Positions 3,001 through 45,076 of a DNA stretch of 64,000 nt are shown one piece after another. A model generated the notes under the pieces. The model did no database searches. It saw only the letters and a list, made by a program, of their open reading frames with translations, and was not told the DNA's origin. The position numbers were made by a program, and so were the translations under genes. The DNA is taken from positions 82,799 through 146,798 of IMG/VR virus record IMGVR_UViG_3300014039_000017. One strand, written 5' to 3'. Each line of letters begins with the position of its first letter. Position 1 is the stretch's first letter. The DNA is from a virus (taxonomy: Duplodnaviria; Caudoviricetes).

Positions 3001-6000
3001 TCGCCACTGCATACTGAAATAGATGCGGTTACCGGAGAAAAAATTCCAGAGCAGCTTCCAGGATGATTTGTAAATAATACTACGTTTGATAATGTAGATG
3101 GAAATATATATTACAAAGACAAAGTATTATGCACAGCAGATGGAAAACAATTCTATACGCAGCCAGGAGTTACCAACGTAAATAATATGGTTGTTCTAAA
3201 TAGTATAGAACAATTACAAGAGCTACTTGATTCCGACTTATTTAATAGAGTTGAATATAATTATAATTCTAATAATCTAAATGAAATACTGAAATACAGA
3301 GGATATATTAATGATGAGGGTTTAGTTACAAAAGAAATAAAGTTTCATCAAGCAGCAAATCGTTTATCTCCTGTAGAGACAGACAGATTCAGACTTAGAT
3401 ATATAGTAGGAAAGCAGATTGAAGTTGGAACAGATATAACAAAACTTGATGTAGAATCATTGATTGAAGACCTAAACCAAGAGGTAGAATATGAAAAAGA
3501 TAGAGATATTAAACAAATAGCTTATAATAGGTTTAATGCTTTTAAAAAACAGCTTGAAGTCATTGGAGCACGTATTCCAACGCAAAGTATGCAATCTTAT
3601 ATGGGATTGAAAATTGTGGCATTGACAAATAGCATTTATAACGAAGTATATATTCCTGCTGCTATGGCCTGGCTTGAAGGATCTAATAAAAAAATTAAAG
3701 CCAAGTTTGGAAGTATAGTGTATTTTTGCTAACTTGCATTAGCAAAAATATGTATATATGAATATTGATATCGAAAAATTTAAAGCTGAAGTAAATCTTA
3801 AGAAGAATTACCAGCAATTATCAAATGAGTTTAATTGTTCTATAAAAACAATAAAAAGATATGCAAAAGAATTAGATTTAACAGTTGCAACTAAAATTTG
3901 TAAATCAAATGATCCAGAAGTTATAAACTCAGTCAAAAATCTTTTAGAGAAAAATAAAACTAATTTAGAAATTTCTAGAGAACTTGGAATCAGTCCAACG
4001 ACTGCAAGAAAATATACAAAGTTACTTGGAATGGAAACAAATACAGTAAGAAATAAATCGTTAAAAAGTCCAATAACTTTAACTAAAGAACAAGAAGAAA
4101 TAATTTATGGATCTATGCTTGGAGATATGTGTTTAACGACTACACAAAAATCGTATAGATTTTCCATATCTCAAGGAGGTGGGCATGAAGAATACTTTGA
4201 TCATCTAGCTAATATATTTTCTAATGTTATAGGAAAAGTAAATAAAACTCCAAGATACGATAAAAGAACCAAGTTGTTCTACAATAAATTTATGGTTAAA
4301 TTTTTAGCATCTACATCTTACAAAAAGTATTATGATATAATGGTTATAAATGGTAAAAAGACTGTAACGGAAAAGTGGGCAAACCATTTAACTGCTAGGG
4401 GATTAGCTTATTGATTTATGGATGATGGTTGTGTAAACGGAATTATAGCTACAAATGGATTTGCATTAGAAGAAGTTAATTTATTATCTCGTGTAATATT
4501 AAATAAATTTAATATTCACACAGATGTTCAAAAAGTTTCAAAGAAAGAACAATGAATATTACATATTCAAGTAAAAGACAGAAAGGCGTTTGAAGATATA
4601 ATAAGACCTTTCATAATTCCATCAATGATGTATAAGTTAAAATATAAATAGTTGGATCCTAACCTCGTGAACTGCGGGAAACTCCTTAGAGACTTAACTA
4701 CTAACTATATATAGAGATATATATAGGGTGTAACTAATCATTACAGTATAGTAAAAAGGCTAAGTATTGGACAATCCGCAACCAAGCCTCTAAAATAGAG
4801 GAAGGCTCATCGACTATCGAAAAGCGTGCAAGCGAACCAAGTAGAGTAGCGTAAAAGCGAAGTGCGAGGCGTGTTTTTTAAACACGAAGATATAGTCAGG
4901 TCAATTATTAACGTAATTGTGCGTTTAGGACTATGATATAGATAAACTATATATGATGGGTTATGAACTTAATTCAAAAGGAGGATTTGTAGGATTCTCA
5001 AGGCTGCTTAATGACGCTTTAACTCAACAAGAATTTGATGATATTCTTGATTTACCAAAACCAAATGGAATAAAATATGTAATTGGAGAAAATTCTGATT
5101 CTGGATTAAGTGAATTGGATGTTTTAAGTGTTATCGGGGACGTGGCACAAAGAGATTATACATTACTTAAAAATGTAATTAATTCTGATTCAGATCAAGT
5201 GCATTTTAAACCAGAAGTATCAAAATCTAGTAGATACCGATTCTTAAACATTCTTAATAAGCATAGTCAAACTAAATTATCTAATTATACTAAAGAGGCT
5301 GCTTTAAGAAATTCTGTTGTGTATAAAATTAATACACTGCTTAGAAATGCAAGATTATCTCCATTGGCACATAAATCCGTGGATGATAGTATGGCGCTGT
5401 TTAGAAATATAGCGAAGAAATCAATGCTTGCAGCAACAGAGCTTTCTCTATCATCTGATAATCCTCTTGTTAAATTCCTTATGCAAACTCAAAATATGGT
5501 TGGTAAGGATGTAATTGGTATTACGGCGGTTGGAATGAAAGTATTCTTTGGAGTTACTACTGCATTAAATCAAACAATAACAGATTTAGTTGAGCATATA
5601 AAAACAAAGGATTTTGTTTCAGCACAATCAGATTTTCAAAATTTATTGTTTAAAGATCCTATTACAGGACAAGATATAACATTGGCTAATTTAAATTTTG
5701 AACCATTGCTTGATTTGCTTAATAATTTATCAGAACAAGACAAATTAGATGTAAATAATGCTTTGGGGGATTATTTAAATGAATTGCCAAAAATAATAGA
5801 ACAATCACAACACACCGACGCAGCGGAAGCAATCTCAGGTTTGCTATCTGCGGCCACTGATTTTTGTAGCAACAAAAAGAAACACTTGCATATTTAAATT
5901 TTTATAAGTAAATTTGCATAAACTTAAAATATATTAATTATGCAAAAAATTTCTGAAGAAAAAATTAATCAAATGTATGAACTTTATAAACAAAATTTTA

Positions 6001-9000
6001 ATAAAGTTCAAATTTCAAAACAATTAGGAGTTAATGAAGAAACCGTTAGAAAATATTTAACAAAAAGATTTAATATTCCTCTTAAAGATTATTCTAAAAA
6101 AGTAGATCAACAAAAATTTGAAGAACTCTGAAAACAAGGAAAAACAGATAAAGAAATATCTGATTTTTTTGGAGTTTCTGAATTGACGATTAAAACTTAT
6201 AGGACAAAAGGCGATAACGCTGGAAAATTTAATGTTGTTAGATATTTTTCACAAACAGAACAAAAGCTTACGTATGAACAAGATCAATTTATTAGAGGAT
6301 CTCTTTTAGGGGATTTAAATTTATCTAAACCAAAGACAAATAGACATATAAACTCTCGTTTAGCAATTGTTCAATGTGAAAAACAAAAAGCGCTTTTTAT
6401 AAAAAAAGTAGAAATTTTAGGAGATTTTATGGGAAATTATAAATTAGTAGTCCCGAAACCTGATACTAGAACAGGAAAAATATATACTTCTTATAGAGGA
6501 AATTCGAAATCACATAAAGTTTTTACGGATTTATATAATGAGTTATATATAAATGGAAAGAAAACAGTAACAAAAGAGTTTTTAGATAAAATAACTTCTC
6601 CTACAGCATTAGCGTTTTGATTTATGGATGATGGAACTTTTAATGGAAGTATTGCAACTAACGGATTTTCAGAAAACGAAGTTGATTTGTTAATTAAATG
6701 ATTATCTGAATACTGACATATAATTTCGTATAAAGAAAAAAATTTAAACAAATTTATAATTAGAATATCCGAAAAGTCTAGAAAATATTTCGATAATTTG
6801 ATTAAACCTTATATAATTCCAGAAATGGAATATAAATTAAAATACAAGTAATAAGACAATAGTTAGTGGATAAAACCTCGTGAACTCAGGGAAACTCCTT
6901 AAAGTCTTATATACCAAGCAATTATAGTAATATAATTGTGGATGAAGTAACTACTCATGTATGGTAACAAGTATAAGAATTGGACAATCCTGATCTAAGC
7001 TTCTGAAAAGAAGAAAGAGCAACGACTAATTTGTAGGGTTTAAGTAAACCCGAAGTGCGAGGAATCTAGAAATAGATTAAGATATAGTCTGATCTTTTAC
7101 GAAAGTAAAAGAGATTATACGGAAACGGTATAATCGTAACACAAATGAATGCTAAAGAGCTAATATTAGCCAAAATTAACGCTACAGCCGATTTTGCTGA
7201 TGCATGAACATTTTTGATTTCTACTGGAAGAACTCCAGAAGAAATATCAAAAATTATGATGTCTCCAATATTTTCTGTAGTACAAAAATATAGTCACTCA
7301 AATCTATTCTCAACAATAGGCTTAACTAACAGTAAAAAAACAGCTATTGAATTTACACTAGGGTTAAAACAGTTATCTGGTATAAATCTTAGAGATTTAA
7401 AACTTATAGTTGGGGCTTATAGAGGTAAGGGACTAACTTGAGATAATAAATGTTTCATAGATAAATTGTTATATGAAACCGAGAATGGAGAGATTAAATT
7501 AGATTCTACTGGAAATCCAATTAGGAGGCAAGTAAAATTAGTTGATGATAAGTATTTAAGTTCAGAAGACGGAATATTTGTTCAGGGAAGCGAAGTACGT
7601 AAAAACATGTTTGAGTTATTTAGTGATCCTAATAACGCCAATAGTACAATAATATCTAAAATACTTCTTGAACATATTGATTATTTAAGAAAACATTCAT
7701 CTGATTATAATGTTAATTCTGACGATTCGGATTATGATCCTAGTATAGAGGAAGACTATAATGAAATTGAAAATTATGAAAATGATTATCAAGATCAAGA
7801 ATACGACTTAGAAAATGATGAGTTAAACGATGAAATAAATAATCAAGTTAATAATTCCGACTTTGGGTCTGATATAAAAATTAAGGTTACTCTAAATTCT
7901 CTTAATAATATAAGAAGATATGTATCAAAATGCATAATTCCTAAAAATGAACAAATCGCAAAAATTAATGAACAGGATCCAGAAGCTATTACAACTTTGA
8001 CTGATTTCTATAATAACGTTCTCCCAGCGGTTGAAGAGCAAACAATCTTGGGGGCAATGCTCGGAGTAAATCAAGGACTTAAGAGTAAATTATCAGATTT
8101 TATAGGCGTCCTTAAAAGAGTTGAAAACTTTGTAAACGCAAGAATCCCTAGAGATCAAAATGGTCCAATATACGAAGCATTTAATATAATTAAATTTTTA
8201 GAGGATGATGAGTACAGGCAAGACTGAATACAAAATTATGCATCAATGAAATCTTATAATAATATATTAAGAACTATTTCAGAAGTACCTAATTTTGCAT
8301 CAATGTATAAACAAAATGCTTTAACATATAGATTGGAATCCCATTCAGCAAGAAATAAAATTAATATTAAACTTGAAAAAGCGATACTTGAGTATAATAG
8401 ACGTGGAAGTTCTGCTACTAGAAAGTTAACTGGTGATGAATGAAGCGTTATGGATAAGTATACTAGAGATTTAATTTTAACTAATTGATTGCTTACACAG
8501 AATATTAGTTTTACAATTCCAAGTAATCAAGATTTTTACGATAATGGAAATCTTGTATATATAAAAGATGATATTGATGATAATGGAAATGTAATTCATG
8601 ATCATTCTGATGCAAGAAAAATTAATTTAAATACATTTAGTGGACAAGCTTCATTTATAAGATACTTTGAAAATACATTATTTGACATATTAAAACAAAG
8701 GTATGCTAATGATGAAGATAAGAAAGCATTTTTAAATAATGTCGTAGCATCTCCGGATTTTAGTAGTGTTTATAACCAAAAAACACATCATTTAAAGCTA
8801 TCTATTAATTCTATGCTTGCAGATAAAAATCAAGGGTTAAAAACTATATACAGTGAAATCCTAAAAGCATTTAATAATCTTTCCACAGAAAAGATTCCAG
8901 AACTAAATAACATGACTTTTGGAGATGCTTTATTTATATACAATTCTCTTGTTTATAAGAATGCATTTACAGAAAAAGGATTTACCAGATTATTTGAATC

Positions 9001-10213
9001 GCTAATATTTGATGAAAACTCAATAATTAATTCTTATGTAAGCTTTTTATCTGACCTAGATAGTAATACTATCGATACAGGATCTGCGAATGATCTAGAT
9101 AGCGATCTTGAAATAAACGATAACGGAACATTTACTTGAGGAATGATAAGAGGTAATATAAATGATTTTCTTAGAAGATTGGCATTTAATCAAGTATCTG
9201 CTAATAAATTTGGGGTATCACTTAATAAAGATTCTGAAAAATCTATATCAGAATTAGCGTTTCAAGATATGTTTGGGCGTCCAACTAAAAACGAATATGG
9301 AATGGACAAACCATCTATTTATATAGGTGTATCTAATGCAAATGATTGAACTTCAGAAATGCCTTGTATGACACAAGATTTTGAAGATGCTACATTTAGT
9401 TATGGAGAAAATTATAACCAATCTAATTGTTATAGGTGAAATTCTGAAGTAGTAATAAGAACTGTTATTGACACTCTTGCAGATAGACTTAATTTGACAG
9501 TTGGGGACAATTCCGATTCCGATATAGTTTTATTTGATAGTAATAAATTACCATCATGAGCGGAATATAATAACGGAGTAGAATCACCAATAAGTTATAA
9601 GAGTTTCTCTGATTATATGAGAGTTATGAGGAGTTCTGCATTTATTAATAATGGTAAAATATTTATTAATACTAACAAAATGAATGTGGATACAACAGTA
9701 CACGAACTAATGCATATATTCTGTGCAAATCTTAAGTTTAATAAAAATGAGGATATAGTTAAACTATATTACGATGCTATTGATGCAGCTAATAATTTAT
9801 ATAAAACTAAAATGCGCAAAGAATACGTTGAAATGCGAGAGCAATACAATGGTGATTATGGTTCAGATTTCAAGGAAGAGTTGCTAGTTAAACTAATGTC
9901 AGATCAATTTACTCATTCATTTAAAAATAGTTTTGGATCACAAAAATGAGTTGATGATATAAAATCTGAAATAGTTAATACAATTAACCAAATTTTTGCT
10001 TCAAATGTAAAAGAGGATATAAATGTAAAGAAATTAGGTGATACAAGATTAGCTGATTTCTTGCAGGCATTTAATTCTAAATTATTTGATACAGATGGAA
10101 ATAACCTTTTAGCAAATATGCAGCTTGATCAAGAAATGAAGACCATTAAGCGAATTCTTATTAATAATGCAGAAGATCCTACTAAAAATAGTAAAATAGA
10201 ATATAATTGTTAA
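1..10213 (+). CDS. Giant virion DNA-dependent RNA polymerase (crAss-like, two-barrel catalytic subunit) with C-terminal zincin-like domain; 5'-truncated; 3 exons (<1-3684, 4929-5861, 7148-10213); TGA=Trp
   Basis: Track ORFs share one frame per exon and are broken only by TGA. Splicing restores ARIPTQSMQS...WLEGS|DYDIDKLY (DxDxD catalytic motif) and SAATD|NAKELILAKIN. HELMH...EE near the C-terminus. Stop TAA 10211-10213. Confidence 0.9.
3685..4928 (+). mobile_element. Group I intron #1 (in RNAP, just before DYDID) with LAGLIDADG homing endonuclease
   Basis: Exon ends in U (GGATCT|) and intron ends in G (TTTAG|GAC). IGS GGATCCT at 4654-4660 pairs with exon AGGATCT. Core motifs AACTGCGGGAA, AATCCGCAACCAAG, TCGACTA and AAGATATAGTC. 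Confidence 0.93.
3758..4651 (+). CDS. LAGLIDADG homing endonuclease with N-terminal HTH repeats (TGA=Trp)
   Basis: IIYGSMLGDM motif. TGA readthrough at 4412 gives LAY-W-FMDDG. Ends TAG 4651. Confidence 0.9.
5885..5916 (+). promoter_or_regulatory. Bacteroidota sigmaA-type promoter for intron #2 endonuclease
   Basis: CTTG...N20...TAAATTTG, 23 nt upstream of ATG 5940. Confidence 0.65.
5940..6851 (+). CDS. LAGLIDADG homing endonuclease with N-terminal HTH (TGA=Trp)
   Basis: Joins track ORFs 5940 and 6183. Motifs FIRGSLLGD and LAF-W(TGA)-FMDDG. Ends TAA 6851. Confidence 0.9.
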
Positions 10214-15200: not shown

Positions 15201-15874
15201 TTAATTTTATTAAAAAGATCTTTTAATGTTTCGGAATTATCAATTATATAATCGAACATATTAGACTTATATAACATATATATCTCCTGTTCTGAAGCGT
15301 GGTTCCCAGGAATAGCGGAAGGACGATTTATATAAATAGTAATTCCTTTTCTTTTTTTAATTTCATCATATTCAACTTTAAATCGCATATCAGATACAAT
15401 AATATTGTCATAAATATTGTTTAAAGTTGATTCGATTCATAATTTATCTCCAAAAATATCTCTTGCTATATTAGTTCCAAAAGCTTGTAAAAGTTGTCTA
15501 ATTGTAATAAATTTTGTTTTAAAGAAACTAAAATCTTTACTTTCGAGCATTTTATTAAACTTGTTATCTGAAATTGGAATTGCAGAATTAGTTAGAACAA
15601 TCGGATCGAACATAATACACCAGCACTCTTTAAAGTACCTTTTATCAAACATTTTTCTATCAATTCCAGTAATCCCAGATAAACAATCCTTTAAATGATC
15701 TGCAAATGAAACTATTTTATATTTATAATTTATATAATTTCCAAAACATTTATAACATCAATATTGTCTAAGTACTTTAGGAACACTTAGACAATATTGC
15801 AACATTTTAGAAACTTCATCTTTTCCTGAGTTTTTTAAACCACCTATAGCAATAAGTTTATTATCCTGTAACAT
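15188..15874 (-). CDS. Deoxynucleoside monophosphate kinase (TGA=Trp)
   Basis: IAIGGLKNSGKD P-loop, SFADHLK, RQLLQAFGT, IIVSDMRF and HASE motifs. Joins track ORFs 15437 and 15188 via TGA. Confidence 0.85.
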
Positions 15875-16913
15875 TATATGAGATGTTAATTCCAAATTTA
15901 TCTACAAAACCAGCTCTTTTAAGCTCATTTACTGCACTATCCAAATAATACTCACACCCATTTATATAAGTGTCTTTGATTAGTAACTTGTCTTCATCTG
16001 TAACAGGGTCATTATCTCTTGGAACAATATTATACATCCTTAATGGAAAAGAACCAAATCCTCTCCAACCTATAGTATTTTTGACTTGCTCTATACCTAC
16101 GCTATTCCATTCATTTAAGTAACGAACTTTATTTTCTCTAATTCCAAGCATAAACCTAACAGCATTAGGGGTTTTAGATATATTAAATCCTGTAAGCATT
16201 TTTAGACCTAAACCTCTAGTTGTTTCATCGGAGGAATCAAGCATATCACATATAGATTTATATGTATCCGGAGTTAATGCTCCAAAGTTATTATTAATAA
16301 TCTTATCTAGCATTTTATCAGTAATTATGCATGTAGTTTTATTACTCAATACCATATCTACAGCTTTACCGAAACCACATAAAATACTATCGTTTGTACA
16401 ATATCTTACAAATACTACATCTTCAGGAAATATCCTAGATTTAATGTTATCAATATAAGATTTTTGATCTTTTAAGAACAGTTCTTCCTCTTTTGTCTTT
16501 GACCAAGGCGATATATAAATATTTGATTCAGTAAGAAGATAATAACATTCTTTTCCTCTATATAGAATGCATCTATTATTTAAAGAAGCGTCTTTCCATT
16601 TATTGCTAATAACTATATAATCAGCTTTATCAGGAGATAAGCATCTACTAAATTTAGTATCAGACAGCTTAAATCTTGGAAACTCAGAACTAGGTGTAAA
16701 ATATAGTTTATAACTAGATTTAGAACAATCTATATCTTTAGTGCAACTTTCTATATATCGTGTAATATTAATATTTTTTGTGTATAAAGCATAATCGTTA
16801 CACTTATGAAAAGTTGAGTTGCTAACACCCCAAAAGTTAGAAATATTAAATTCTGAAGAAAGCCTTCTAGTATCACAATTAACCTTAACTGGAATATTAT
16901 TATACGTTATCAT
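15861..16913 (-). CDS. Hypothetical protein in the MoxR/VWA cluster
   Basis: 350-aa intact ORF, tightly packed. Confidence 0.75.
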   Translation of the reverse strand: MITYNNIPVKVNCDTRRLSSEFNISNFWGVSNSTFHKCNDYALYTKNINITRYIESCTKDIDCSKSSYKLYFTPSSEFPRFKLSDTKFSRCLSPDKADYIVISNKWKDASLNNRCILYRGKECYYLLTESNIYISPWSKTKEEELFLKDQKSYIDNIKSRIFPEDVVFVRYCTNDSILCGFGKAVDMVLSNKTTCIITDKMLDKIINNNFGALTPDTYKSICDMLDSSDETTRGLGLKMLTGFNISKTPNAVRFMLGIRENKVRYLNEWNSVGIEQVKNTIGWRGFGSFPLRMYNIVPRDNDPVTDEDKLLIKDTYINGCEYYLDSAVNELKRAGFVDKFGINISYNVTG

Positions 16914-19468
16914 TACAGTACTTTATTTCTAATTTTAGTGTTTAACATAAACTTATTAGTCCTATTTGGGAACTTCTTTATAAGATTCCTTATAATATCA
17001 AAAAGAAAATCCTCAGAGAAAATCATTTTCTCATCTGGATTATCGTTACATTCGATAAGTTTAAGCAATCTATCTTGTACAACGTCTGTTTTTGCTTTAG
17101 CCTGTTCAAAATAATAAGCCGAATAATTCAACAATCTTGTATGAAGTATTGCGGCTACATCAGGTCTATAAGTTCCATTAGATGTATATACACATTCTAT
17201 AAGTTTATCTTTAATAGAATCCCAAGGTTTAAGTAATAAATCTTCTGGAGATATAAGTTTATCAAGCTTATTTGCTATAAATGTGGTAAATAAACCACCT
17301 ATAATATTATCTTTATCATCTACAAATGCTCCAGATGCAATTTGATTTATTAAAGCAAGGTTTGTAGGAGTTTCCCAATCGGATATACCTGAAATGGCAT
17401 TTGCAAACATTACATAATTTCTAGCATTAACTGCGTGTTTATGTTGCTCGTTCTCTTTCATTAATTCGTAAGAATATTGTAAAAAGAAATTAATCCTATT
17501 CTTAATATATTGGCTTTTTATCCAATATTTCTTATATTTTCATATAAGAGGAGCATATATCTTCACCATATGGTGCCCCGCGCTCGTGTTGCTTCATAAT
17601 CCGTTCTGGATCGTTTGCATTATGCGTTGAACCTTCTACTTATTCCTAAGCAGCTTGGCTGCAGATTGTCCAATTTTCAACCTTTTTACTATTTCCAAGT
17701 AATTAATTTGGCCATATATATATTACTATACATATTTAGTAGTTGAAACTCTAAGGATTTTCCTGCAATTCACGGGGTTACGAACCTATAATTTTTTTAA
17801 TATTCTATCTTTATATTTATAACAAATTTCATTATCTATAATTACTTTACTTGCACTACTTTTAATAGTTTTATTAAACGCCTCTAAAGTTTCTCAAATT
17901 CCAACTTGATTTCCGTCAATATCATATTCTACAACAATAAATTTTCGTTGTTTTTTTCTATTAATAGAGTTATCTAACTGCTCAGCATGCCCACGAGCAA
18001 TTCTATATTTGTTAAAAAATCCCGAGGAATTATTTAATCTAACTCAAAGAAAATTATGTTTTTGTCGCACCTCTTTTAGAGTTAATCCTGGGAAAAGATA
18101 TTCAGATAAATCTGTTATAGATTTAAATGTTTTTAATCTTTTGCCATATAGATCGTACAAACTACATTCTTTTCGACTTTTTTCTCCGGAATTTGATCGA
18201 TATTTTGGAATTTTTTCAGAAAACTCTCGTCTTCACTGAAATTTACCCGCAGATTGGTTACGTAATCCATTTTCTGGGCTAAATCCAAGAACATGAATTA
18301 CTTCTGCTGAGTTTTTTCATTTTTTTATAAAATTACCATCTAAATCATACTGATAGATAGGATTTTCAATATCTACAAAAATTCCAAAATCAGAATACGG
18401 ATGTAGTTGAGTATTAAAATCAGGAGAATATTTTGTTATAAATTCTTCCTCGGTCTTTAATAAAATTTCTTTGTAATCCGCAGATTTAAATGGTATGATT
18501 CTATTAAAAGATTTTAGAATTTCAATTTCGAAATATTCAGCTCCATATTTATTAAAACAATTTTGCATTTGGCTACTATTATGCCTGTTGCCTAATAAAT
18601 CGTTTCTATGATCTTTTACTCTTTTTCGAAAAGAAATTGTACTCCCAATATAAAACTTATTGTTTTTAGTACAAGTAATTTTATAAATACAAGATACTTT
18701 TGGGCAATCTTGATATTTTACAGTAAATAATTGCATAAAATTTATTTTTTAAGGTTAAAAAATTAAAATTATATGCAAATATAGTGAAATTTATTTAAGA
18801 TAAAAAATATTATTTTTTTAAGCTCGACCATCAATTTGAGCTCGTTCTGCCCATTGAGACCAAGTATTAATGTCAAATTTTATTCTAAACTTCATATAAC
18901 GGCTCTGCATGGCATCATCAAGATCGCTAACATTGTAGGATCCATCATTAGGGTTCTCTGTCATTATAATTGTACTATACTTCGGAAGTTTCCATGAAAT
19001 ATACTCTTGACGGCATACTATTTCCATTGCAGCCTGTGCTATAGCTGGAGTAACTCTAGTCCAATCATCTAGAACGATAATCGACGATTTTTCTGGATCT
19101 AGGGATTTAACCCAAGCAGGAATAGCATAACTCATTCTAGTTTCAGATGTTAGCTTATATCCCATCTGTGTATAAGTTGGAATAAGCTCTGCTGATATCC
19201 ACTCACAACCTTTTTCATCATTGCAAACATAATGTTCCTTTAACGGCCAACCAACAAGGTCGCTAGGATCGCTAATCTGGCTTAGATTTATTTTAACATA
19301 GTTACAATTAAGCTTAGATGCTATTTGGTCACATACTGATGTTTTTCCTATTCCGGCAGGAGATTCTAGGCTCACAGAAATAGGATATTGTCCACAGTCT
19401 TGTAGAGTACGATTGTTTTTAATTATATATAAAAGCAAGTCCTTTGCTTCACTTAAATTTAATTCCAT
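16913..19468 (-). CDS. MoxR-like AAA+ ATPase, 2 exons (19468-18821, 17494-16913)
   Basis: SPAGIGKT Walker A, VLDDWTR Walker B, TENP and D.AMQSR. Splicing gives IDGRA|INFFLQY in frame. Adjacent to a VWA gene. Confidence 0.85.
17786..18736 (-). CDS. GIY-YIG homing endonuclease with NUMOD1-like repeats (TGA=Trp)
   Basis: CIYKI...FYIGS...R...H; QYDLDG repeats. Four in-frame TGA. Ends TAG 17786. Confidence 0.88.
18776..18783 (-). promoter_or_regulatory. -7 element (TATATTTG) upstream of intron #3 endonuclease
   Basis: Matches TAnnTTTG, about 40 nt before ATG. Confidence 0.55.
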
Positions 19469-20589
19469 TATTCTTTTGGCATATATATTGTAGTCCCTGG
19501 AAAATCTTGGTGTTGTCCTACACCTGATATAACCCAAACTACATCTCTTGTTTTGTGTAATTCATTTAAATAAAATTCACCATCAGTAAACATCACTAAT
19601 GTTGAAAATTCTTTTTTATTGCTATTATAGTGATCTATAACTGGATTTAAATCAGTTCCACCTCTACCACATATCTCAATTTCAAATTTACCATTGTATT
19701 CCCAAGTTTTTGTAATCCTTGTATCACACTCATCAATAGTAACTTTAACTCCGGATCTCCATAAGTGATATATTTCTGAAAAAAAGTCCTTTAATTCAGA
19801 CATACTAACACTTCCAGAGGTATCAATTCCAACAAGTATATGGGGTTTTCTAATAAATCGGACACCTCGACCGTCGGGAAATCTTCTAGACGGTCTCATT
19901 TTAGTAAGTTTAAGTTCAGATGTAATTAAATTTCCAATCACTCTTCTAAAATATGCTTTCCAATTAAATACTTGTTTCTTTATTTTAAATAAAGAATCAA
20001 TATATTCTTTAAATTGTCCTGGAATATTTCCGTAAGTTTTCTTGACTTGTTCGGCAGTACTTTTAGCAATAAAATCAACTTGATTTGAGATTAATTGCTT
20101 TTCAGACTCGCTTATATCGCTAGCCTCCTTCCAATTAGAATGGTCGTCTACTAATTCTCCTACACCATTTGACATAGACTCATTTTGAGGAAAGTCTGGT
20201 AAATTATCATAATACCATTTAGTTCCTTTAAATGAATCGAAGTTAAATAATGCAGGATAAACATAAGGGATTTTCTGTAATTCTGGTATTGCAGAATTAA
20301 CTTCTAAGTCAGCCGCATAGTTAAATCTTGTATGATTACTATATTCTGGACCATATATAGGATGTTTATATATTATATGGCTTACCTCGTGTTTAAGAAC
20401 TGCTATAGCTTCAATTTCTGAAAGGGTTTCAAAAAAATCTTTATTAACAGCTAATTCAAAATTAATCCCATTTAATCTAACGCCAGCAGTAGGAACTTTA
20501 TCACTATAAAATCTATTTAAATTTAACATAAAGAGCCCATAGAAGGGCTCCTTTATGAGTAAATTTTTAACACATCTATCTAATTCCAT
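19468..20589 (-). CDS. Metallopeptidase-like (HExxH) + VWA domain protein
   Basis: KHEVSH; DTSGSVS MIDAS; GGT; FTDG. Confidence 0.85.
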   Translation of the reverse strand: MELDRCVKNLLIKEPFYGLFMLNLNRFYSDKVPTAGVRLNGINFELAVNKDFFETLSEIEAIAVLKHEVSHIIYKHPIYGPEYSNHTRFNYAADLEVNSAIPELQKIPYVYPALFNFDSFKGTKWYYDNLPDFPQNESMSNGVGELVDDHSNWKEASDISESEKQLISNQVDFIAKSTAEQVKKTYGNIPGQFKEYIDSLFKIKKQVFNWKAYFRRVIGNLITSELKLTKMRPSRRFPDGRGVRFIRKPHILVGIDTSGSVSMSELKDFFSEIYHLWRSGVKVTIDECDTRITKTWEYNGKFEIEICGRGGTDLNPVIDHYNSNKKEFSTLVMFTDGEFYLNELHKTRDVVWVISGVGQHQDFPGTTIYMPKE

Positions 20590-20741
20590 TTTGCCGTAAC
20601 ATGATTATCACCCCACTTTGGAGGGTCGGTATATATTGGAGTATATGTCCAATTCGATATAGGAGGAACTTCATTATATAGTTCCTTATACTCTTGAACT
20701 GTTAATTCAAGAATTTCTCCGTTTTTCTTAATTAGTTTCAT
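20580..20741 (-). CDS. Small hypothetical protein (53 aa)
   Basis: Fills the gap, with overlapping start and stop junctions. Confidence 0.5.
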   Translation of the reverse strand: MKLIKKNGEILELTVQEYKELYNEVPPISNWTYTPIYTDPPKWGDNHVTAKWN

Positions 20742-20937
20742 TTTTACTAGTCTCTAATTCTACATTAGTATCTTGTATATCATTTGGTACAATTATACAT
20801 TTCTTTATAAAAAGATTTAGAAGATTTTCTGGTCCTCCTATTTTATTTATAAAAGCTGTAACTAATTGCTCCCTAGTAGGCTCTGAAGAAACTTCTAATT
20901 CCATACAAAGCCTATTAAAATATATATTATACTCCAC
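20728..20937 (-). CDS. Hypothetical protein
   Basis: Packed ORF. Confidence 0.6.
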   Translation of the reverse strand: MEYNIYFNRLCMELEVSSEPTREQLVTAFINKIGGPENLLNLFIKKCIIVPNDIQDTNVELETSKNETN

Positions 20938-21913
20938 AGTTAAATTGTTGTTTTAAATTATCAGCAAGTACTTTAAGATCTGGATGAGCTCTTTGTGAGC
21001 ATCTAAGTTCAAAGAAATGATTCCAATCAGATTCAAAACCACATACAAACATTCTAGTTGCCGTGTCATTAGGTAATACACCTCTAGCAAATTGAGGTTT
21101 AATACCTTCATCAAGCAATTTAAAATATTGATATTCGCACGCTTTCATAGTTCTATACCAACAACGAGTTGGATCAGACATTTTAGAATAAGGCTTATCT
21201 ATGTCTTTAATCCAAGTTGGCTGAATAAATTTAACGTTATTATCAAATTTATCTGCGTTATATGCGCAGTATCTTTGCGACTCTTGAATAAAAGACATTG
21301 TTCTATGCCTTACTATTTCATTAGCTATAGCTCTAGAACAAATAAATTCAGCGGTTACTCGTTTTTCGTGATATTGAGTTGGTTCACAAAGATAATTCAA
21401 ATCTTGCTCCCAACCGTTTTCAACGATTACTCGCATATTAGTTGTAATATATTTATCAAGATTAAATACTTTTACAATGCTATACTTATTTGCGCTATAT
21501 TTACTAAAATCAAATAAAGAGCCGGATGGCACTTTAAGATAAACAGTACCAAACTCAAATACACTTAAATGTCCATTCTTTTTAATCATAGCACAGAACT
21601 CTTCTGCTGTACGATTCTCATAAAGAGGACTATCTTCAAGATTTTCTTCTTTATAATTAGAAAGTTCTGGGAATAAATTAACTAGTTTATGCGGAATAGA
21701 TACATAATATCCTTCGTCAAAAAACGGACCTTCTTTTACAAGAATTGAAGGATTAGCTTTAAGCAAATCAATATTTTCTGATTTAGGTATTCTAAAATAC
21801 TGAGTCCCCACACTAGCATAACTAACCCTTCCAGCTTCCTCAATACTACGATAAATATCTTTTAATGTATATCCAGATTGCTTTATTTTTACACTACTAT
21901 TAATTATTTTCAT
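20927..21913 (-). CDS. thyX: FAD-dependent thymidylate synthase
   Basis: GHLSVFE, RHRTMSFIQESQRY, ARGVLP and FFELR..AHP motifs. Confidence 0.93.
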   Translation of the reverse strand: MKIINSSVKIKQSGYTLKDIYRSIEEAGRVSYASVGTQYFRIPKSENIDLLKANPSILVKEGPFFDEGYYVSIPHKLVNLFPELSNYKEENLEDSPLYENRTAEEFCAMIKKNGHLSVFEFGTVYLKVPSGSLFDFSKYSANKYSIVKVFNLDKYITTNMRVIVENGWEQDLNYLCEPTQYHEKRVTAEFICSRAIANEIVRHRTMSFIQESQRYCAYNADKFDNNVKFIQPTWIKDIDKPYSKMSDPTRCWYRTMKACEYQYFKLLDEGIKPQFARGVLPNDTATRMFVCGFESDWNHFFELRCSQRAHPDLKVLADNLKQQFNCGV

Positions 21914-27614: not shown

Positions 27615-30612
27615 TAGTTTTTAATATGCTTTACTCTATCTTCAGTTTCTTTCTGTTTACCATAATTAAATGCAGACTTATAGTCGCCCGTAAGATATCC
27701 TGTCACTCTTCTCAACCGCTGTATGTTTGTTCCGCCGCATTCTGGACAATTTTCTCCAATTTCATCAGTGTAACCACAATTCATACACGTGTCATTAGGA
27801 ACATTTATTGCAAAATATGGAATATCTTTATCCATAGCATAATTAACTAGAGTTTCAAGGGCTGGAATATTATTTTTTGCGGTGCTAGGAAGTTCTACAT
27901 AAGTAATACATCCCGCATTAGAATATCCGGTTAATTGAGACTCTATATCAATTTTTTCAAAAGGATTCATTTCTTTCCAAACTGGAACATGAATAGAATT
28001 TGTAAAATAATCTTTATCTGAAACATTTTCTATTTTTCCATATTTCTGTTGAAATTTCTTCATTGCTGTGTAACAGAGATTTTCTGCCGGGGTAAAATAT
28101 ACACCAAAATTAAGAGAATATTTCTTTTTAAATTCAGCACATCTTGTCTTAAATAAACATTCAATTCTTTTAGCAAGATTCATACCATCTTCTGTTGTGT
28201 GATCTTTTCCAATTAGAAGATAAAGAGTATTAGAAAGTCCAAGTTGTCCAATCGCTAATGTTCCATGTTTCATTGCGGATTCAACAGTTTTACCATCAAA
28301 TCCAGCTATTACATTATTTTCATACATAAATTTAGCTGATTCTATTGGTTGCTTACATATTCAATCATAACGCTCTAAAAGCATATCTTTTGCTTCAGAA
28401 ATCTTTTTATCTAATAAAGTTATAAAATCTTCAACGGGATTTTTTGACTTATTATCAATAACAACTTCTGCAGCAAGTGTTGGAAGTATAATAGTAACAG
28501 GGCAGATATTCCCTCTGCCATCTTTTTGTTGACCAAAACCATTAATATCAAAACCATTATAGGTTCTGCACATGCTATCTGATGTTGCCATCAGCACTGA
28601 CTATATATTCTATCATTTTGATAGCCTTCTGTTTGGAACTAGCGCTTATCTCTAGCTCTACTCGCTTACATTCATCAGCGATAGTCGATACACATTAAAT
28701 ATATTGAAATTCATAATCATAATTATTTGTTGTTTTAGTTCCTTTTAAAATAGCAGTTATTGTTTTTCTATTTAATCCTAATTGTTCTGAACACATTCGA
28801 ATACTCTTAAAAATTAATTCCTTACCGTCTTTTGTAATAACTTTAACTGCATGGCTTCTTTTTCTACTATGGTATAGATTATTATCATATCCGTATTGAG
28901 TATTTTCAGCATTAGAAACTCATTCTAGATTAGAAATATTATTATTTAACTTATTTCCGTCTATATGATTAACTTGTTTTAAACATTTTGGATTAGGAAT
29001 TAATGTTTCTGCTATTAGTCTATGAACTCTAACGTATTTTCTTTTACCGTTAATTCTAAAAACTACTTGATAATAACCAGTATTATCAATTCATTTAGAT
29101 AATTTATGATATTCACCATTAATTATTCGGTAAATATCTTCTCCACTTATATAAACATTTTCAAAAGAAGTTTGTACCATATTTTATAGTCTTAATTGTT
29201 AATATAATACAAAATTACTCCATTTGTGTCGAATTTCAAAATATTCTTTAGCACGGTCTCATCTTTTTCAAGACCTAACCGTTAGCACATTTCTGTACAC
29301 CCTTAAGCAAGGTTAAGAAGGTTTTAAATGGGCTGCATATTCACTAACCCATTGTAGATGTGTAAGTTAGAGGATTTTTAGGATCATACCCTTCGTTTAC
29401 AGTTCAATCTACATTAACATAATTAGGATACAATCGTAACGCGGTAGATTTTAATGCTTTTTGAAAAAGATAATAATTTGGATCCCCAGGAGCCCTGTTA
29501 ATTCCTTTCATGCATTGAAATATAGAACAAGGAAAAATTGGAGTTTTATGAAACTTACCAACTCCTTTAATAGATGCATTTAAAAGTGCATCTATAACAA
29601 GCTGTCCCTCATACAGTGTACACGTACCATAATTAATAGACGTAAATGGTAGTTGATTTCCAGAACGACTTTGAAGAGTATTTAAATTGTGAAATAAGCC
29701 CTCTGCTGCTTGATTAAGCTCTTTAATTGTCATATCAAGAGCGTAGTTATATACTTCTGGGTACTTCTCAGTAAAGCATCTGGAATTAATAGGTAATGTT
29801 TTTAAGTATTCCCAATCAAGTTCGTCTGTCGCTCCGGCAATATAATGATATCCATCACGCCAATGCTTAATAAAACTCTTGCGAACATAAGGAACCATAG
29901 TTCAATCTAGGTGAGTAGCCGCAACTCCTCCAAATTGTTGTAAGCTTTGTAATTGAAATATAACGGCAACAAGCTGAAAAGCGGTATTAATACTATTAGC
30001 TGGACGAACATCTGTTTGTCTTGTATTAAAGCCTTTTGCAAGTAAATCATCAAATGGAATAGACAAGCAATTGTGGTCTCCTATAGCATAAGAATCAAGA
30101 TCATGGATATAAATTTCATTATTTATATGATTGTTTCTAGATGTTTCAGACATATAATCAGATAGAGCTAGTTGTTTTAAAGCAATTCTACTTGCTTCTC
30201 CAACTCTACCACCAAATGACATTTCATCAACATTTGCATTTTGGTTTTCAATATTCTTTGCTTCTAGCTTTTCTTTCATTCTGTTGAGAATAACATAGTC
30301 TCTTTCTCTAATTTTTCTATGCTCTTCTCTATACAAAATATATCTCTTAGCTGCATCATAATACTCATTAACCATCATAATACGTTCTACAACATCTTGA
30401 ATATCTTCTACAGATACTTCTCCATCTTGGTCACTAAACAGATTATTTACACCTGTTTTAAGAGCTTGCACTAGTACAGGACCAATTAGTTTACCTGTGG
30501 TAGTTTCCCATTTATTAGGATCTTGTGAGCCTATTGCTTTACCAACTGCAATCTTAATCTTTTCAAAATTAAATTCTTCTTTTTGTCCATTACGCTTCGT
30601 TACTTGCTTCAT
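27614..30612 (-). CDS. nrdD: Class III anaerobic ribonucleotide reductase, 2 exons (30612-29347, 28570-27614), TGA=Trp
   Basis: ATP-cone, IYIHDLD, spliced MG|CRT, TPAENL, CxxC..CxxC and RRVTGYL glycyl-radical loop. Confidence 0.95.
28695..29180 (-). CDS. HNH homing endonuclease (missed by track; TGA=Trp)
   Basis: RVHRLIAETLIPNP...VNHIDGNKLNNNISNLE-W(TGA)-VSNAEN. Confidence 0.9.
29210..29240 (-). promoter_or_regulatory. Bacteroidota-type promoter inside nrdD intron
   Basis: TTTG-N19-TAATTTTG, 30 nt before HNH ATG. Confidence 0.65.
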
Positions 30613-39498: not shown

Positions 39499-39501
39499 AA
39501 T

Positions 39502-41838
39502 TTAAAAATGATATTGTAATTCTTTTTTAGACTCTTTTTGAGTCTGATCTTCTATTTTTGTTTTATTTGGGTTTATGTTTTGATTGTCAAGGCTTAGATA
39601 AGGACGCCAATCAGTAACTTGTTTAGGGGGCGGCAATTGTCGAAATATACCTAATTCTCCAAAGAAGTTTACAGGAATTACTCTATCTGATACTCCTTGG
39701 CGGTTTTTTAGTAAACAACAAATTCTGATACGATCTCTTAACCCTAAAAATGGATTCTGTTGTCCAGAATCTTCTACAATTACTGGGTATCCTTGATATG
39801 ATTTTAATTTAAACTTTAGAGGATAGTAAACTCCAATACATACTTCACACAATTTTGTTATCTTCACAGCTCTTTATCTGTGAAATCTATATGTTACCAT
39901 ATAGTTCAGACTATATCTTCTCTTTTTTTAGAGTTGCTCCGTTTTCGTGGTAGATTTATATCCTCGACTTTACGTTAGGAATCACTACTAGTCGTTAGGC
40001 ATTTTCCTTTATTTCTAAAGGGTTTAGCACGGGATTGTCCATTTTTGGAGTTTCCCCGTTTAGCGGAGTTTTACAACGACTATGTAATTTATATTTACAA
40101 CAATCTTGTATATAAGGAATTATTAGATTTTCAAATAATTGTGCAGATTTAGATTTTATATAGAGTCTATTATCACTATGAATAGCTGTATAGATGTTAT
40201 ACTTATATAAAAACATATCTTGCATCATTTTAATTTCAGATTTAGTAAAGCAATTAGTAGCTAAATAATAACCATTTCCAGTAGCTTTAAACCCATCATC
40301 TTGAAATCATATAGCTAAACCTAAAGGTTTTATAGAATTTAACATTTCTTTATTTATATATTTAATTTTTTTATCACCTTCTATTTTATAAAACATATTA
40401 TAAAATTTTCATAAACATTTATTTTGTCTAGAATGAGCTGTATATAAATAATAAATTTTATTTGTTCTTTTATCAAATTCTTTAGTTAAGAAAAATGATT
40501 TAAATAAAGGCTGCATCTGATCAAACTTTCATTTACAGTAATCTTTTTGTTTTGGAGAATGCCCGAAAATTAAATAAGGGGTTTCTGTGCGATTAGGAGT
40601 TATCATACATGAATCTCCTAAAAGACCTCCTATAATTATTTGATATTGATCATCAGTTAATTCTATTTCCTTTAGAAAATTTGGTTCTAATCCAAGTTTG
40701 TTTCTATAATCACAAACTCTTTTAGATGGAATTTTAATTATTTCAGAAATTTCTGGATCGGTTAGACCTTTGTTATAAAGATCCATAAATTTATCATAAT
40801 CAAAATTTCATTTAATTCTAAAATCTGCAAGTGAAATATTATACTTTTTACACCGAGCATATAAAGTACCATATTTTACATTTAATAAATCTAACATTTC
40901 TTTTACGCAACTTGATTTCTCTTTTGCGTTTTCAATTTCTTTTTTAGTTAAAATAAATTTTTCCATATTTTATATATTTTTAATTTTTATATACAAATAT
41001 AGTAAAAAATTATTCTTTTTAAAGAAACTGGATAATTTTAATATAAATTTCGTTTATCGTTAAACGGACCTCCAGAATCTTTGAGACCGTCTGGGGAACA
41101 TTCTGTCATACCAGCTTTTACCCTATCAATATCAGATGAATTTCTATTCTCTTGTTGAAGAATAGTAAACGATACGCGACATTTTTCTCGAATAGAAACA
41201 CAGTACGAAGAGATTAAATCGATTTCTTCTTTTTTAGAGTGATTATCAACAGATTGGCACAATCCGATATGATCTATAACGACTTGAACTATTTGAGTTG
41301 GATCGTTTTTAATATATATTGTTTGCTTACCATCATTTATAGGCTCAAATGTTCCTCACTCTTCTAATAAACTCATTAAAGAATGATAGAAAGATTTATT
41401 ATTAAGAGATTTATCAAATATAATAAACTTCTTCTCAATAGATTTTAATCAGTCTTTTCCCTTTTGTACATATATATAATTTTCATCAGAAAGTTTATCC
41501 TGCCATGACATAAGTGTTGTATAAGGTATTATCTTTCCAAATTCTTCATATATATACATGCATAGAAGCTTAGATAGGAGTATTGGAGCTGACATTTCCA
41601 AACTATAATACGCAATAACAATATTAGCGTCTGGATTATCCTTTAGTGGCCTATAAATATAGCTATAAAGCGCTAGGGCAGTCTTTCCAGCCCCAGAAAG
41701 TCCAAAGATTAACGTATATATTCCAGAACGTACTCCACCTGTGTATTCATCAAGTTTTGGAATTCCGGTACTAAATCCTTTATTTTTACCTTCTCGACCT
41801 TGATCAATTGTCTTATAAAGAATATCTACATTAGTCAT
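39502..41838 (-). CDS. DnaB-like replicative helicase, 2 exons (41838-41056, 39849-39502), TGA=Trp
   Basis: GLSGAGKT, YSLEM, VIDHIG, QQENR, LKDSGGPFND|CEVCIGVY and LKNRQG motifs. Confidence 0.9.
39995..40966 (-). CDS. LAGLIDADG homing endonuclease (TGA=Trp); C-terminus overlaps ribozyme core
   Basis: IIGGLLGDS; LAI-W-FQDDG. Joins track ORFs 40529 and 39995. Confidence 0.88.
40994..41001 (-). promoter_or_regulatory. -7 element (TATATTTG) upstream of intron #5 endonuclease
   Basis: 27 nt before ATG 40966. Confidence 0.55.
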
Positions 41839-42427: not shown

Positions 42428-42497
42428 TTTAAATAAATTAAAAGAATCTATTTAAATTACAATGTTTAAAACTTTTACGTGTGCATTGTATTAACTT

Positions 42498-45076
42498 TTA
42501 AAATCTATTTTCATAATCAGTTATAAAATTCATAGGTCTTGTTTCTACTTTTTCATAGTTTAAGACCTTTTTTAATTTATCTTCTGAATCTATAACAATA
42601 TAGTCAGAAGTATTGCTATTTGCAAACCATTTTAATTCTTGAGTGTCTGCAATAACAAGAGTAAACATTTCAGCTGTTTTACCTGGCTCAAATCTACAGA
42701 TTCGGCCTGATTGTTGAACCGCAGTTATTTTAGAACTATTTATGTTCATCCTAACTCCAACAGATAGCCCTTTTAAATCTACGCCTTCATTTAAAGCTTT
42801 AGAGGAATTCAATACACCTGAAGCAGAATTATTAAAATCTTCTATAGCTTTTTTATTTTCAGATTCCTTTTTACCTGAATGAAGAGTTGTTCCACGTTTA
42901 ATAGATTCTGCAAATTTAATTGTAGGGCAAAATGTAATGCATTTTTTATCTTTACGTGCATCTAGAATCATTCTACAGGTTTCTATCTTTTTAGGATGGT
43001 TTTCTATAAAATCTTTTCTAGCATGTAAAGCTTTCATTCATTGCGCAGATTGAGCTAATACTTGTTTTGGATTACTTCCAATTTCTTTAGCATATTTATT
43101 GCGAAACTTCCAATCTTGCAAACATCCCATCGCAATTTTAAAATCTCATTGAAAGAACGCAAAATAACTATTAAATTTCTTATTTAATTCTTTATATTGA
43201 GTTAAATCAACATTTAAAAGAACTAAATAATTTTTAACTGGAGCAACCCAACCATTTTTAAGCGCTTCATCTAAAGTGATTGTGTCACATACAGGAGCGT
43301 ACTTTTTTATTATTATTTCCTTTCCATCAAGTCTCTCAAGCGTTGCGGTTAAACACATAATAAATGTATAATTAACAGCTTTAAATAACTCTGAAAAGGT
43401 GTCTGAAGCCATTCTATGGCATTCCATTTATATTAACTTATACTTTCGCATAAGATTAGACTATATCTTATTTATAATTACTATAAATTTTGCTATTTCC
43501 AAATACTGTTGTTGTGCATATATGCGCAATATTTGTACTCCTAAAAGGATAGTCGTTGAGCCTACATCCTATAAGGATGTTTGGTTGCGGATTTCCCAAT
43601 CTTTTTCTTTTTTACTATACTGAGGTAATTATTCTCACCGTTATATATGTTGCCATTATAATTTAGTAGAAAAAGCTCTAAGGGAGTTCCCGACAATTAA
43701 GCAAATTTAAAGTCAACAAATTATTCATCGACTATAAGTAAGTCAGTATTTCACTGCTTTTTTATCACTGTGTTAATAACTTCAACATCACAATTTTGTA
43801 TTAATCCAAAATTCATTATAGAAGTTAATCACTGCTGTTTTAAAAAGGTTGTAGGTACAACAACTAAAACATTTAATGTAGGACGTTTTTTACAAAGGAG
43901 TTTAATTGCTTTTAAGGCTGTCCGGGTTTTCAGTTTTGTTATCCTAAAGGCTTTTTATCCTTTAGCTCTATATATTTCTATATAGCTCGGCGTACATTTT
44001 CACCCACTTATTTCAGTTGGGGTGTTGAGCACTCTTGGGAACATTATATTCTATTTATAGGTTCAGTTCCTACGCTCTACGGTGACTAATTATATTATTA
44101 ATTAGTTTACCTCGGTATTATCCGTTAGGACTTTTACCGATTTTGCTCAATAAAATTCTCTCATTCTTGAGGAGATCGGCTTTCTTGTTTAAAGAAAGTA
44201 TATTTTAAATATTTTCTTTTAAGATATACTGTAGAATTGTTATAAATATAATCTAAAAACTTAAATGTATCTTTTAAGCTAAAATATATAATTCAAGTTT
44301 CATTTGAATGTCGTTTATCATGTAAAAAATTTATATTAAAACCAGAATATTCTCCAATTTTAATTAAAAACTGTTTTGTCCCAATAATTGAAATATTAGG
44401 AGATACAATTGTTTTACATATATGTTGAGAAAAACATCCATCTCCATCAAAATATCCACGAATAAAATGCCGAATTAAGTTTTTTGATTTAAATATTGAT
44501 TCTTTCGGAAAATTAAGAGTTAAAGATTTATTCGGAGTGCAGCCATAATTGTTAAGAATTGTTCATAAATGTTTATTCGTAACACATCATCTACATCTTC
44601 CAAAAACTTTATCTTTAATCTTACTTTTACTTATTTTAATATTTTCCCCGTTATATCCAACAAATTTATTAAACTTATATAAATGTTCGGTATCCTTTTC
44701 GCACAAAGAAATTTCAAAAGTATAATGCGCTTTTTTATTTTCTATATTAGCAATATATCCATCAGCGTATATAAATCCTAATCAGTATGCTTTTTCTTCA
44801 GCATCAATAGAATCAAATATATTTTCATTAAATTTTGATATATTTCATCTATTAATAATTTTTATTTTAGCACTTTTAATTATTTTAGTAATTTCTCATC
44901 TAGATACATTTTCTATTTTAGCTAATTTACTTAATGAATATCCATTCTTGTAATCACTTATAATATCAATTCTATTTCTCATATAAACCTACCCCAGTGG
45001 CATAACATATTGAGCCACAGCCTTTTACATTAATTCACCTTTTTATTCCAAGTTCTTGTCGTTCATCCCTAGTCAT
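42498..45076 (-). CDS. SF2 (DExH) helicase, 3 exons (45076-44987, 43930-43727, 43424-42498), TGA=Trp
   Basis: Spliced ATGVG|KT (motif I), VVVPT, LIVD|ECH (motif II), LTAT, LNEGVD and QQSGRICR. Confidence 0.9.
43425..43726 (-). mobile_element. Group I intron #6, ORF-less (302 nt), in DECH motif
   Basis: GTCGAT| ... TAAATG|GAA. IGS GTTGACT (43711-43717). AATTGTCGGGAA, AATCCGCAACCAA, ACGACTA and AAGATATAGTC. Confidence 0.92.
43931..44986 (-). mobile_element. Group I intron #7 in Walker A of SF2 helicase, with LAGLIDADG homing endonuclease
   Basis: GTAGGT| ... AAAACTG|AAA. AAATCGGT/ATACCGA P4; variant P7 GAGCGTA/TACGCC. Confidence 0.87.
44134..44982 (-). CDS. LAGLIDADG homing endonuclease (missed by track; TGA=Trp)
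   Basis: KAY-W-LGFIYADGY and HFIRGYFDGDG. Ends TAA 44134. Confidence 0.88.

Follow-up and report, generated by a model that had tools for sequence, protein, structure and literature searches.

The stretch of DNA analysed here (the window) corresponds to the final 64 kb of a single gut-phage contig of 146,798 bases (IMG/VR record IMGVR_UViG_3300014039_000017), a 147-kb genome in which many broken frames become continuous once TGA is read as Trp, and whose replicative helicase finds its nearest match among crAss-like Bacteroides phages. Seven introns of group I (IA-like) were located in the window, and this work is centred on five of them (introns 1, 2, 3, 5 and 7), where an endonuclease open reading frame (ORF) lies on the 5' side of the ribozyme core. 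An initial annotation of this DNA proposed that these five introns carry their endonuclease in the loop of helix P1 (L1), which places the internal guide sequence (IGS) about 1 kb from the 5' splice site. Our results sustain this layout for introns 1, 2, 3 and 5, and leave it without a demonstrable IGS in intron 7. The introns are the following:

3685-4955, + strand: intron 1, in a giant-protein gene; its 3' end is G 4955 or G 4958 (one-codon ambiguity)
5862-7147, + strand: intron 2, in the same giant-protein gene as intron 1
17495-18820, - strand: intron 3, in an AAA_5/MoxR-like ATPase gene without TGA
28571-29346, - strand: intron 4, of conventional layout, used for comparison; recognized by reading the sequence and by Pfam, with its junction placed by sequence inspection only
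39850-41055, - strand: intron 5, in the DnaB-like replicative helicase gene
43425-43726, - strand: intron 6, without an ORF, used for comparison
43931-44986, - strand: intron 7, in a superfamily 2 (SF2) helicase gene

A U precedes every 5' splice site, a G ends every intron, and excision restores the host frame; when read on past the splice site, the upstream exon frame is closed by a stop within 0-16 codons, a feature shared with other phage introns. The 5' splice site of intron 1 follows ...GGA TCT (Gly-Ser), a junction that also bears an intron in the related loci L008 and L009, with the intron of L003 located 6 nucleotides (nt) away. The junctions of introns 2 (...SAATD/NAKELIL..., the slash marking the splice point), 5 (...GGPFND/CEVCIGVYYP...) and 7 (...ATGVG/KTRTAL..., which splits the Walker A motif) gave ungapped alignments to intron-less homologues, found in MT835470 for intron 2, in L004 and L005 for intron 5 and in L004 for intron 7, and that of intron 6 (...LLIVD/ECHR..., helicase motif II) was confirmed against a homologue. 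For intron 3, with the 5' splice site after 18821 and the 3' exon starting at 17494, in silico splicing produced ...QIDGRA/INFFLQ...; BLAST alignments to distant phage ATPases ended at this junction and gave no confirmation, which was supplied by a large protein collection containing an intron-less ATPase allele (P0001, 409 residues, 89% identical to the spliced product) that reads ...QIDGRA/INFLLQ.... A 3' end of intron 3 at the ATG in 17461-17459 was considered and rejected, as it leaves a 12-residue gap relative to homologues, the true end being G 17495. The 3' exon begins 36 nt upstream of this first downstream ATG (17459-17495, - strand), and an ATG-based gene call loses 12 conserved residues (INFFLQYSYELM).

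The endonuclease genes of the five introns were found at these positions:

3758-4651, + strand: endonuclease gene 1, LAGLIDADG_2 with an N-terminal helix-turn-helix (HTH), wholly in L1; 2 TGA, 1 TGG (Pfam, E = 6.7e-34)
5940-6851, + strand: endonuclease gene 2, LAGLIDADG_2 with HTH, wholly in L1; 4 TGA, 0 TGG (Pfam, E = 2.5e-30)
17786-18736, - strand: endonuclease gene 3, GIY-YIG with NUMOD1, in L1; 4 TGA, 0 TGG (Pfam)
39995-40966, - strand: endonuclease gene 5, LAGLIDADG_2, beginning in L1 and continuing through the IGS and P3-P6; 4 TGA, 0 TGG (Pfam, E = 2.9e-28)
44134-44982, - strand: endonuclease gene 7, LAGLIDADG_1/3, starting 4 nt past the 5' splice site; 7 TGA, 0 TGG (Pfam)

Their bit scores exceeded the curated Pfam cut-offs (99-118 vs 25 for PF03161, 32.2 vs 22.6 for PF01541 and 27.3 vs 23.1 for PF00961), and by these cut-offs the ORFs are real members of homing-endonuclease families, with cleavage activity as a prediction.

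In introns 1, 2, 3 and 5, the pairings between the 5' exon end and a guide were present where the initial annotation had placed them:

4654-4660, + strand: IGS of intron 1, GGATCCT, pairing with AGGATCT (7 bp); L1 of 969 nt; 2 nt before P3 (CCTCG, 4663-4667)
6862-6869, + strand: IGS of intron 2, GTTAGTGG, pairing with CCACTGAT (8 bp); L1 of 1000 nt; 6 nt before P3 (6876-6880)
17786-17781, - strand: IGS of intron 3, GGTTCG, pairing with CGAGCT (6 bp); L1 of 1034 nt; 3 nt before P3 (CCCCG, 17777-17773)
40080-40074, - strand: IGS of intron 5, GTCGTTG, pairing with TAACGAT (7 bp); L1 of 975 nt; 5 nt before P3 (CTCCG, 40068-40064)

Each of these pairs constitutes both the longest U.G-anchored helix and the lowest-energy duplex in its whole 1.2-1.3-kb intron, and the own-exon diagonal dominated a 6x6 cross matrix of exons and IGS. 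As a null reference, a random T-ending 10-mer of the genome pairs equally well with the 16 nt before P3 in ~1% of cases per intron. Across these four introns the IGS lies 2-6 nt from P3, usually 3-5, and no P2 intervenes; hence, P1 must close an L1 of 969-1034 nt. A proximal P1, which had been named beforehand as the finding that would speak against this layout, was sought in the first 150 nt of the four introns, and no U.G-anchored helix of at least 4 bp was found there save one trivial 4-bp match in intron 5. The earlier statement that such pairings occur only after or inside the end of the ORF holds in general, intron 1 being the exception, with 6-bp chance matches inside the ORF at intron positions 425 and 773.

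Related loci displayed compensatory changes in exon and guide. At the Gly-Ser site of intron 1, GGATCT/GGATCC in the window corresponds to GGTAGT/GCTACC in L008 and L009, and the L008 exon GGGTAGT pairs with the IGS GCTACCC; at the Thr-Asp/Asn site of intron 2, CCAC/GTGG is replaced by CAAC/GTTG in L011, where GTTTGTTG, in the equivalent position, is the partner of the exon sequence CAACTGAT. The L011 intron, located at the exact site of intron 2, has no ORF and an L1 of 63 nt. In L023, which carries an intron related to intron 5, GCTGAT pairs with the exon ATCAGT at the homologous place. Furthermore, the segment before P3 is homologous in position to the proximal IGS of three introns: that of intron 6 (GTTGACT, 43717-43711, an anchored helix 9 nt past the 5' splice site and immediately 5' of P3; L1 of 9 nt), that of the Staphylococcus lysin intron L002 (L1 of 10 nt), in which the IGS GGCTC occupies the same position before P3, and that of L011. 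At the level of sequence, the presence of a complete putative endonuclease gene cassette between the 5' splice site and the IGS is confirmed for introns 1, 2, 3 and 5.

The ORFs end close to the guide or beyond it. In introns 1 to 3 the stop codon abuts the IGS, as initially described: TAG at 4649-4651 lies 2 nt before it in intron 1, TAA at 6849-6851 lies 10 nt before it in intron 2, and in intron 3 the G of the TAG is shared with the IGS. The ORFs of introns 5 and 7 had been described as running through the IGS. This is the case in intron 5, where the ORF extends 79 nt beyond the IGS, crosses P3, P4, P5 and P6 and terminates at a TAA immediately upstream of P7 (the overlap amounts to 86 nt); the ORF of intron 7 runs via P3 and ends in the 5' strand of P4, and the candidate IGS it was said to cross found no support. 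As the ORF of L023 stops right at its IGS, the 29 extra residues of endonuclease 5 represent an addition to its C-terminus for which the ribozyme core provides the coding sequence, the process named core creep in PMC3073962.

On the 3' side of each of the five endonuclease ORFs, ~250-330 nt displayed group I motifs, with the P7 strand GATATAGTC located at 4889, 7081, 39909 and 43459. The core of intron 1 was found by nhmmer, with ~80% identity to Herelleviridae introns over P3-P6, and this stretch after ORF 1 is 72-80% identical to Bacillus and Staphylococcus Herelleviridae introns. RNAalifold on six cores (four from the window, two from relatives) recovered P3, P4, P5 to P5c, P6, P8 and P9; once P7 was added, 95.1% of cells were paired, in comparison with 34-45% for slid partners, and compensatory changes were observed in 41 of 65 core pairs, a number matched by none of 500 shuffles. 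Covariation thus extends over the P3/P7 pseudoknot and the P3-P9 helices, as in group I introns. In the alignment, the interval separating P7 from the 3' strand of P3 comprises 60-90 nt with hairpin potential, at the site expected for P7.1/P7.2. The junctions, the covariation of the core and the U/G ends support a group I self-splicing identity, splicing activity being predicted.

The leaders of the endonuclease genes contain promoter-like boxes, which a leader scan located as follows:

3721-3728, + strand: TAnnTTTG box of endonuclease gene 1, 30 nt before its ATG
5909-5916, + strand: TAnnTTTG box in intron 2
18776-18783, - strand: TAnnTTTG box in intron 3
29210-29217, - strand: TAnnTTTG box in intron 4
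40994-41001, - strand: TAnnTTTG box in intron 5

Exactly one such box, of the Bacteroidota -7 promoter type, is present in each of these five leaders (introns 1 to 5), 24-40 nt before the ATG, intron 7 being the exception. The chance expectation is ~6% per 76-nt leader; genome-wide, the box was found 15-90 nt upstream of 17 of 141 long ORFs, and the ORFs of the relatives are likewise preceded by similar boxes. These boxes point to a Bacteroidota host and to a probable independent transcription of the endonucleases.

The same layout recurs in L008-L014 and in L023, and a core of the intron 7 type directly after an ORF was found in about 25 IMG/VR loci. The endonuclease genes of the standard-code relatives L008/L009, L023 and L036/L038 contain no TGA and 2-5 TGG, and the stop codon lies 3 nt from the IGS in L008 and 0 nt in L023. 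Since these standard-code relatives share the layout, the architecture predates recoding and does not need it. Related-locus searches using exon 2 of the giant protein and endonuclease 5 gave no matches, and the one with endonuclease 3 gave a single marginal match. The introns are optional: intron 3 is missing from the closely related ATPase allele P0001, as expected for a mobile intron, and the intron of L011 at the site of intron 2 has no ORF. In MT835492.1 (L036 1214-2425; L005 about 2160-2500), a standard-code human-gut phage, an intron with an endonuclease ORF that extends across P7 occupies the Walker A site of intron 7 in the SF2 helicase; this phage probably has a further intron in its DnaB-like helicase.

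Intron 4 offers an arrangement of another kind, with the IGS GCCCAT, whose G pairs with the U of the 5' exon end, ~13 nt past the 5' splice site and its ORF at the following position:

28695-29180, - strand: HNH (I-HmuI-like) ORF of intron 4, between P6 and P7; 2 TGA (Pfam)

Both layouts, with the ORF in L1 or between P6 and P7, therefore coexist in one genome. Outside the window, a hidden Markov model of the core found at least four further group I cores at 45.6-50.6 kb of the contig (+ strand), ~32-37 kb before the window, and in some of them ~930 nt separate the 5' and 3' halves, a spacing suggestive of an ORF lodged within the core. In total, the 147-kb genome appears to contain at least eleven introns. 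The giant protein interrupted by introns 1 and 2 extends over three frames (1-10213, + strand) that yield 2552 residues after removal of both introns, and it belongs to no Pfam or PHROG family; its sole relative in the phage database is encoded by MT835470. That gene likewise contains an intron, whose LAGLIDADG ORF occupies the interval from P7 to the 3' strand of P3.

Considering these findings, the five elements are very probably mobile group I (IA-like, P2-less) self-splicing introns, with an endonuclease cassette inserted in L1 in four of them and possibly in intron 7. The ORF, its short leader and the promoter-like TAnnTTTG box together would make up the cassette; the 5' exon end would pair with the guide ~1 kb downstream, directly before P3, leaving the ORF looped out. 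In introns 1 to 3 the ORF would terminate at the IGS, and in introns 5 and 7 it would have been extended into the core by creep. On unspliced RNA, the IGS would be covered by any ribosome that reaches the end of the ORF, so that the endonuclease is probably made from an internal-promoter transcript or from the excised intron. As with most genes of this phage, the endonuclease could be made only once the tRNA(UCA) reads its TGA codons. The layout itself descends from standard-code ancestors and did not arise through recoding.

Several observations weigh against this explanation. The check with a group I covariance model proposed initially was negative: Rfam RF00028 matched no intron at the gathering score, nor at E = 10 on the whole window, nor on a 2.5-kb slice. 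The miss reflects a shortcoming of RF00028 with IA introns that carry large inserts; the authors of PMC11878797 had to bring in GISSD models. The subgroup would be IA2-like by likeness to Staphylococcus and Bacillus phage introns only. The end-to-end pairing of L1 had a native mean of -7.3 kcal/mol vs -4.7 (standard deviation 2.0) for mismatched ends, with introns 1 (-0.7) and 2 (-4.6) being unremarkable. Additionally, the boxes suggest that the intron endonuclease genes have promoters of their own, as in T4, an activity read from the boxes alone. The remaining points concern intron 7, for which the following candidate had been put forward:

44172-44180, - strand: candidate IGS of intron 7, GCCGATCTC; unsupported

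This imperfect pairing (44174) did not withstand comparison: it matches the exon at 8 of 9 positions, equal chance matches occur at intron positions 552 and 758, and the segment corresponds to conserved protein-coding sequence. In L036, whose intron interrupts the Walker A motif at the identical position, pairing is limited to 5 of the 9 positions, and no covariation with the exon was observed. Moreover, the 16 nt before P3 of intron 7 show no pairing with the 5' exon end, and neither the anchored search with one mismatch, nor the duplex energies, nor the comparison with L036 provided a candidate IGS consistent between both introns. Pairing of ATCT with AGGT, which would put A-U at the splice site, was also considered and left as unsupported. 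The ORF of intron 7 lies 5' of the core; it could be housed in the loop of a P2-type helix, or a proximal P1 could overlap with it.

Intron 7 is likewise the starting point for the alternative that a proximal or otherwise different P1 is used, the segment before P3 serving another role, e.g., forming the 3' strand of a P2 helix with the ORF in its loop. Its lack of a convincing IGS before P3 is in line with this proposal, as is GCCAAA, a 6-bp candidate without mismatches in L036, located ~100 nt inside the ORF. In introns 1, 2, 3 and 5, however, the first 150 nt offer nothing beyond the trivial match, and the pre-P3 segment is the best partner intron-wide, covaries with the exon in relatives and corresponds in position to the proximal guides of intron 6, L002 and L011, which makes this alternative very unlikely. 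Still further removed is the notion that there are no introns at all, the host genes being naturally split, with their pieces translated separately and free-standing endonuclease genes between them. The absence of a group I match in Rfam and the ATG codons preceding several 3' exons would fit such an arrangement; nevertheless, a covarying group I core follows each ORF, the splits fall inside the Walker A motif and helicase motif II, the junctions give ungapped alignments to uninterrupted homologues, and the true 3' exon of intron 3 starts before its ATG, and we regard this notion as exceedingly improbable.

The remaining alternative concerns the genetic code, and the decoding tRNA is encoded in the window:

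54645-54716, - strand: tRNA with anticodon UCA, which reads TGA (ARAGORN and Rfam)

According to the mechanism put forward in the initial annotation, UGA blocks ribosomes short of the IGS until the tRNA(UCA) is available, and the code switch thereby modulates the splicing of essential genes. Various features agree with it. Every endonuclease ORF has 2-7 in-frame TGA before the IGS, and TGA outnumbers TGG 23:1 in these ORFs vs 73% TGA in other TGA-using ORFs (Fisher p = 0.008). The ATPase gene hosting intron 3, with 9 TGG and 0 TGA the sole TGA-free host among those of the five introns, contrasts with its endonuclease gene (4 TGA, 0 TGG). The stop-to-IGS distance of 0-10 nt in introns 1 to 3 falls within the ribosome footprint, and ribosomes entering intron cores are known to impair splicing (PMC3073962). 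On the other hand, standard-code relatives with TGA-free endonuclease genes show the same stop-at-IGS layout, and four of the five introns (1, 2, 5 and 7) have hosts that need TGA read-through themselves (19, 2 and 5 TGA), so that suppression would start endonuclease translation just when the host mRNA becomes useful. The TGA codons lie mostly opposite Trp in standard-code relatives, and otherwise opposite Phe or Tyr (codon 219 of endonuclease gene 1 is opposite Trp in L008, as are 5 of the 7 TGA of endonuclease gene 7 in L038), and most being at conserved Trp or aromatic positions matches plain TGG-to-TGA drift in a genome whose long ORFs use TGA as the majority Trp codon (341 TGA vs 215 TGG). 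Besides, the first TGA is not early (codons 29-219), and, given the promoter-like boxes, much translation may take place on RNAs unable to splice. The coupling of recoding to splicing is thus unsupported, and we consider the mechanism rather improbable. A related proposal, that the UGA codons of the L1 endonucleases act as a "better late than early" device in which ribosomes drop off before the guide until tRNA(UCA) accumulates, is also unlikely. If it were true, host messages would splice undisturbed early and the endonucleases would be made late, most clearly so for the TGA-free ATPase of intron 3, and codon reassignment would replace the late promoter and hidden ribosome-binding site of I-TevI in T4. 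As a separate observation, 33 of 97 long ORFs are TGA-free and are clustered, e.g., at 15.8-21.9 kb, 32-39.5 kb and 51-64 kb, and endonuclease gene 3 is enclosed by the TGA-free ATPase in the first of these regions (15861-21913, - strand).

With introns harboring their endonuclease cassette in L1 as the favoured explanation, the window provides a natural data set for long-range P1 formation, in which related cores of one genome have an L1 of ~1 kb, an L1 of 9 nt or the ORF elsewhere; the compensatory exon and guide changes in relatives add to its value. For annotation, these introns all escape gene callers and Rfam, and consequently the giant protein, the helicases and the ATPase are annotated as fragments; as intron 3 illustrates, the true 3' splice site may lie upstream of a tempting ATG. 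A link between recoding and splicing, if shown, would represent a new way to time endonuclease translation; present evidence has the layout predating recoding.

The layout is real but already known, since both P1 endonuclease genes and core creep have been published. Endonuclease genes in P1 are described for the Synechocystis tRNA-fMet intron, with a 61-nt overlap with P1/P2, and for Physarum I-PpoI, without overlap (Table 1, PMC3073962); they are reported for nuclear rDNA introns generally (PMC3679873), and a LAGLIDADG ORF in P1 was found in a fungal mitochondrial intron (PMC4964425). The Synechocystis PCC 6803 intron resembles those studied here as a bacterial group I intron with its ORF in P1, its overlap recalling introns 5 and 7 (PMC3073962); it differs in being a single intron, in a tRNA gene, with a PD-(D/E)XK endonuclease, whereas the present phage has LAGLIDADG and GIY-YIG endonucleases, protein-coding hosts, no P2, and four or five such introns per genome. 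The intron of the Physarum polycephalum nuclear large-subunit rDNA (I-PpoI) is comparable to introns 1 to 3, with its gene in P1 and no overlap with the core (PMC3073962; PMC3679873). Hypomyces aurantius cox3-i2 is likewise of group IA with a LAGLIDADG gene in the P1 loop, but it is organellar, and its ORFs are degenerate and part of a twintron-like complex (PMC4964425).

Among phages, the T4 td intron with I-TevI shares several traits with the present introns: group IA, an essential gene as host, own promoters, and an ORF whose 3' end overlaps the core and whose translation must be delayed for splicing to proceed (PMC3073962). Translation into the core harms splicing in that system, a problem solved by delayed translation (Gibb and Edgell 2010, as cited in PMC3073962). 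The td intron differs in having its ORF in P6 and a proximal IGS, and the delay is there attributed to a late promoter and a hairpin hiding the ribosome-binding site, not to codon reassignment (PMC3073962). The Herelleviridae introns (Staphylococcus phage K-type lysin and Bacillus Bastillevirinae; PMC11878797) have a homologous P3-P6 core, with the identity mentioned above, and also have the IGS directly before P3; unlike introns 1, 2, 3 and 5, their IGS lies ~10 nt from the splice site, and the ORF, if any, is located downstream of P6. The same study reported 10 introns in which one flank of the nuclease loop bears a ribozyme signature and the other does not (PMC11878797), and these one-sided introns may share the layout described here.

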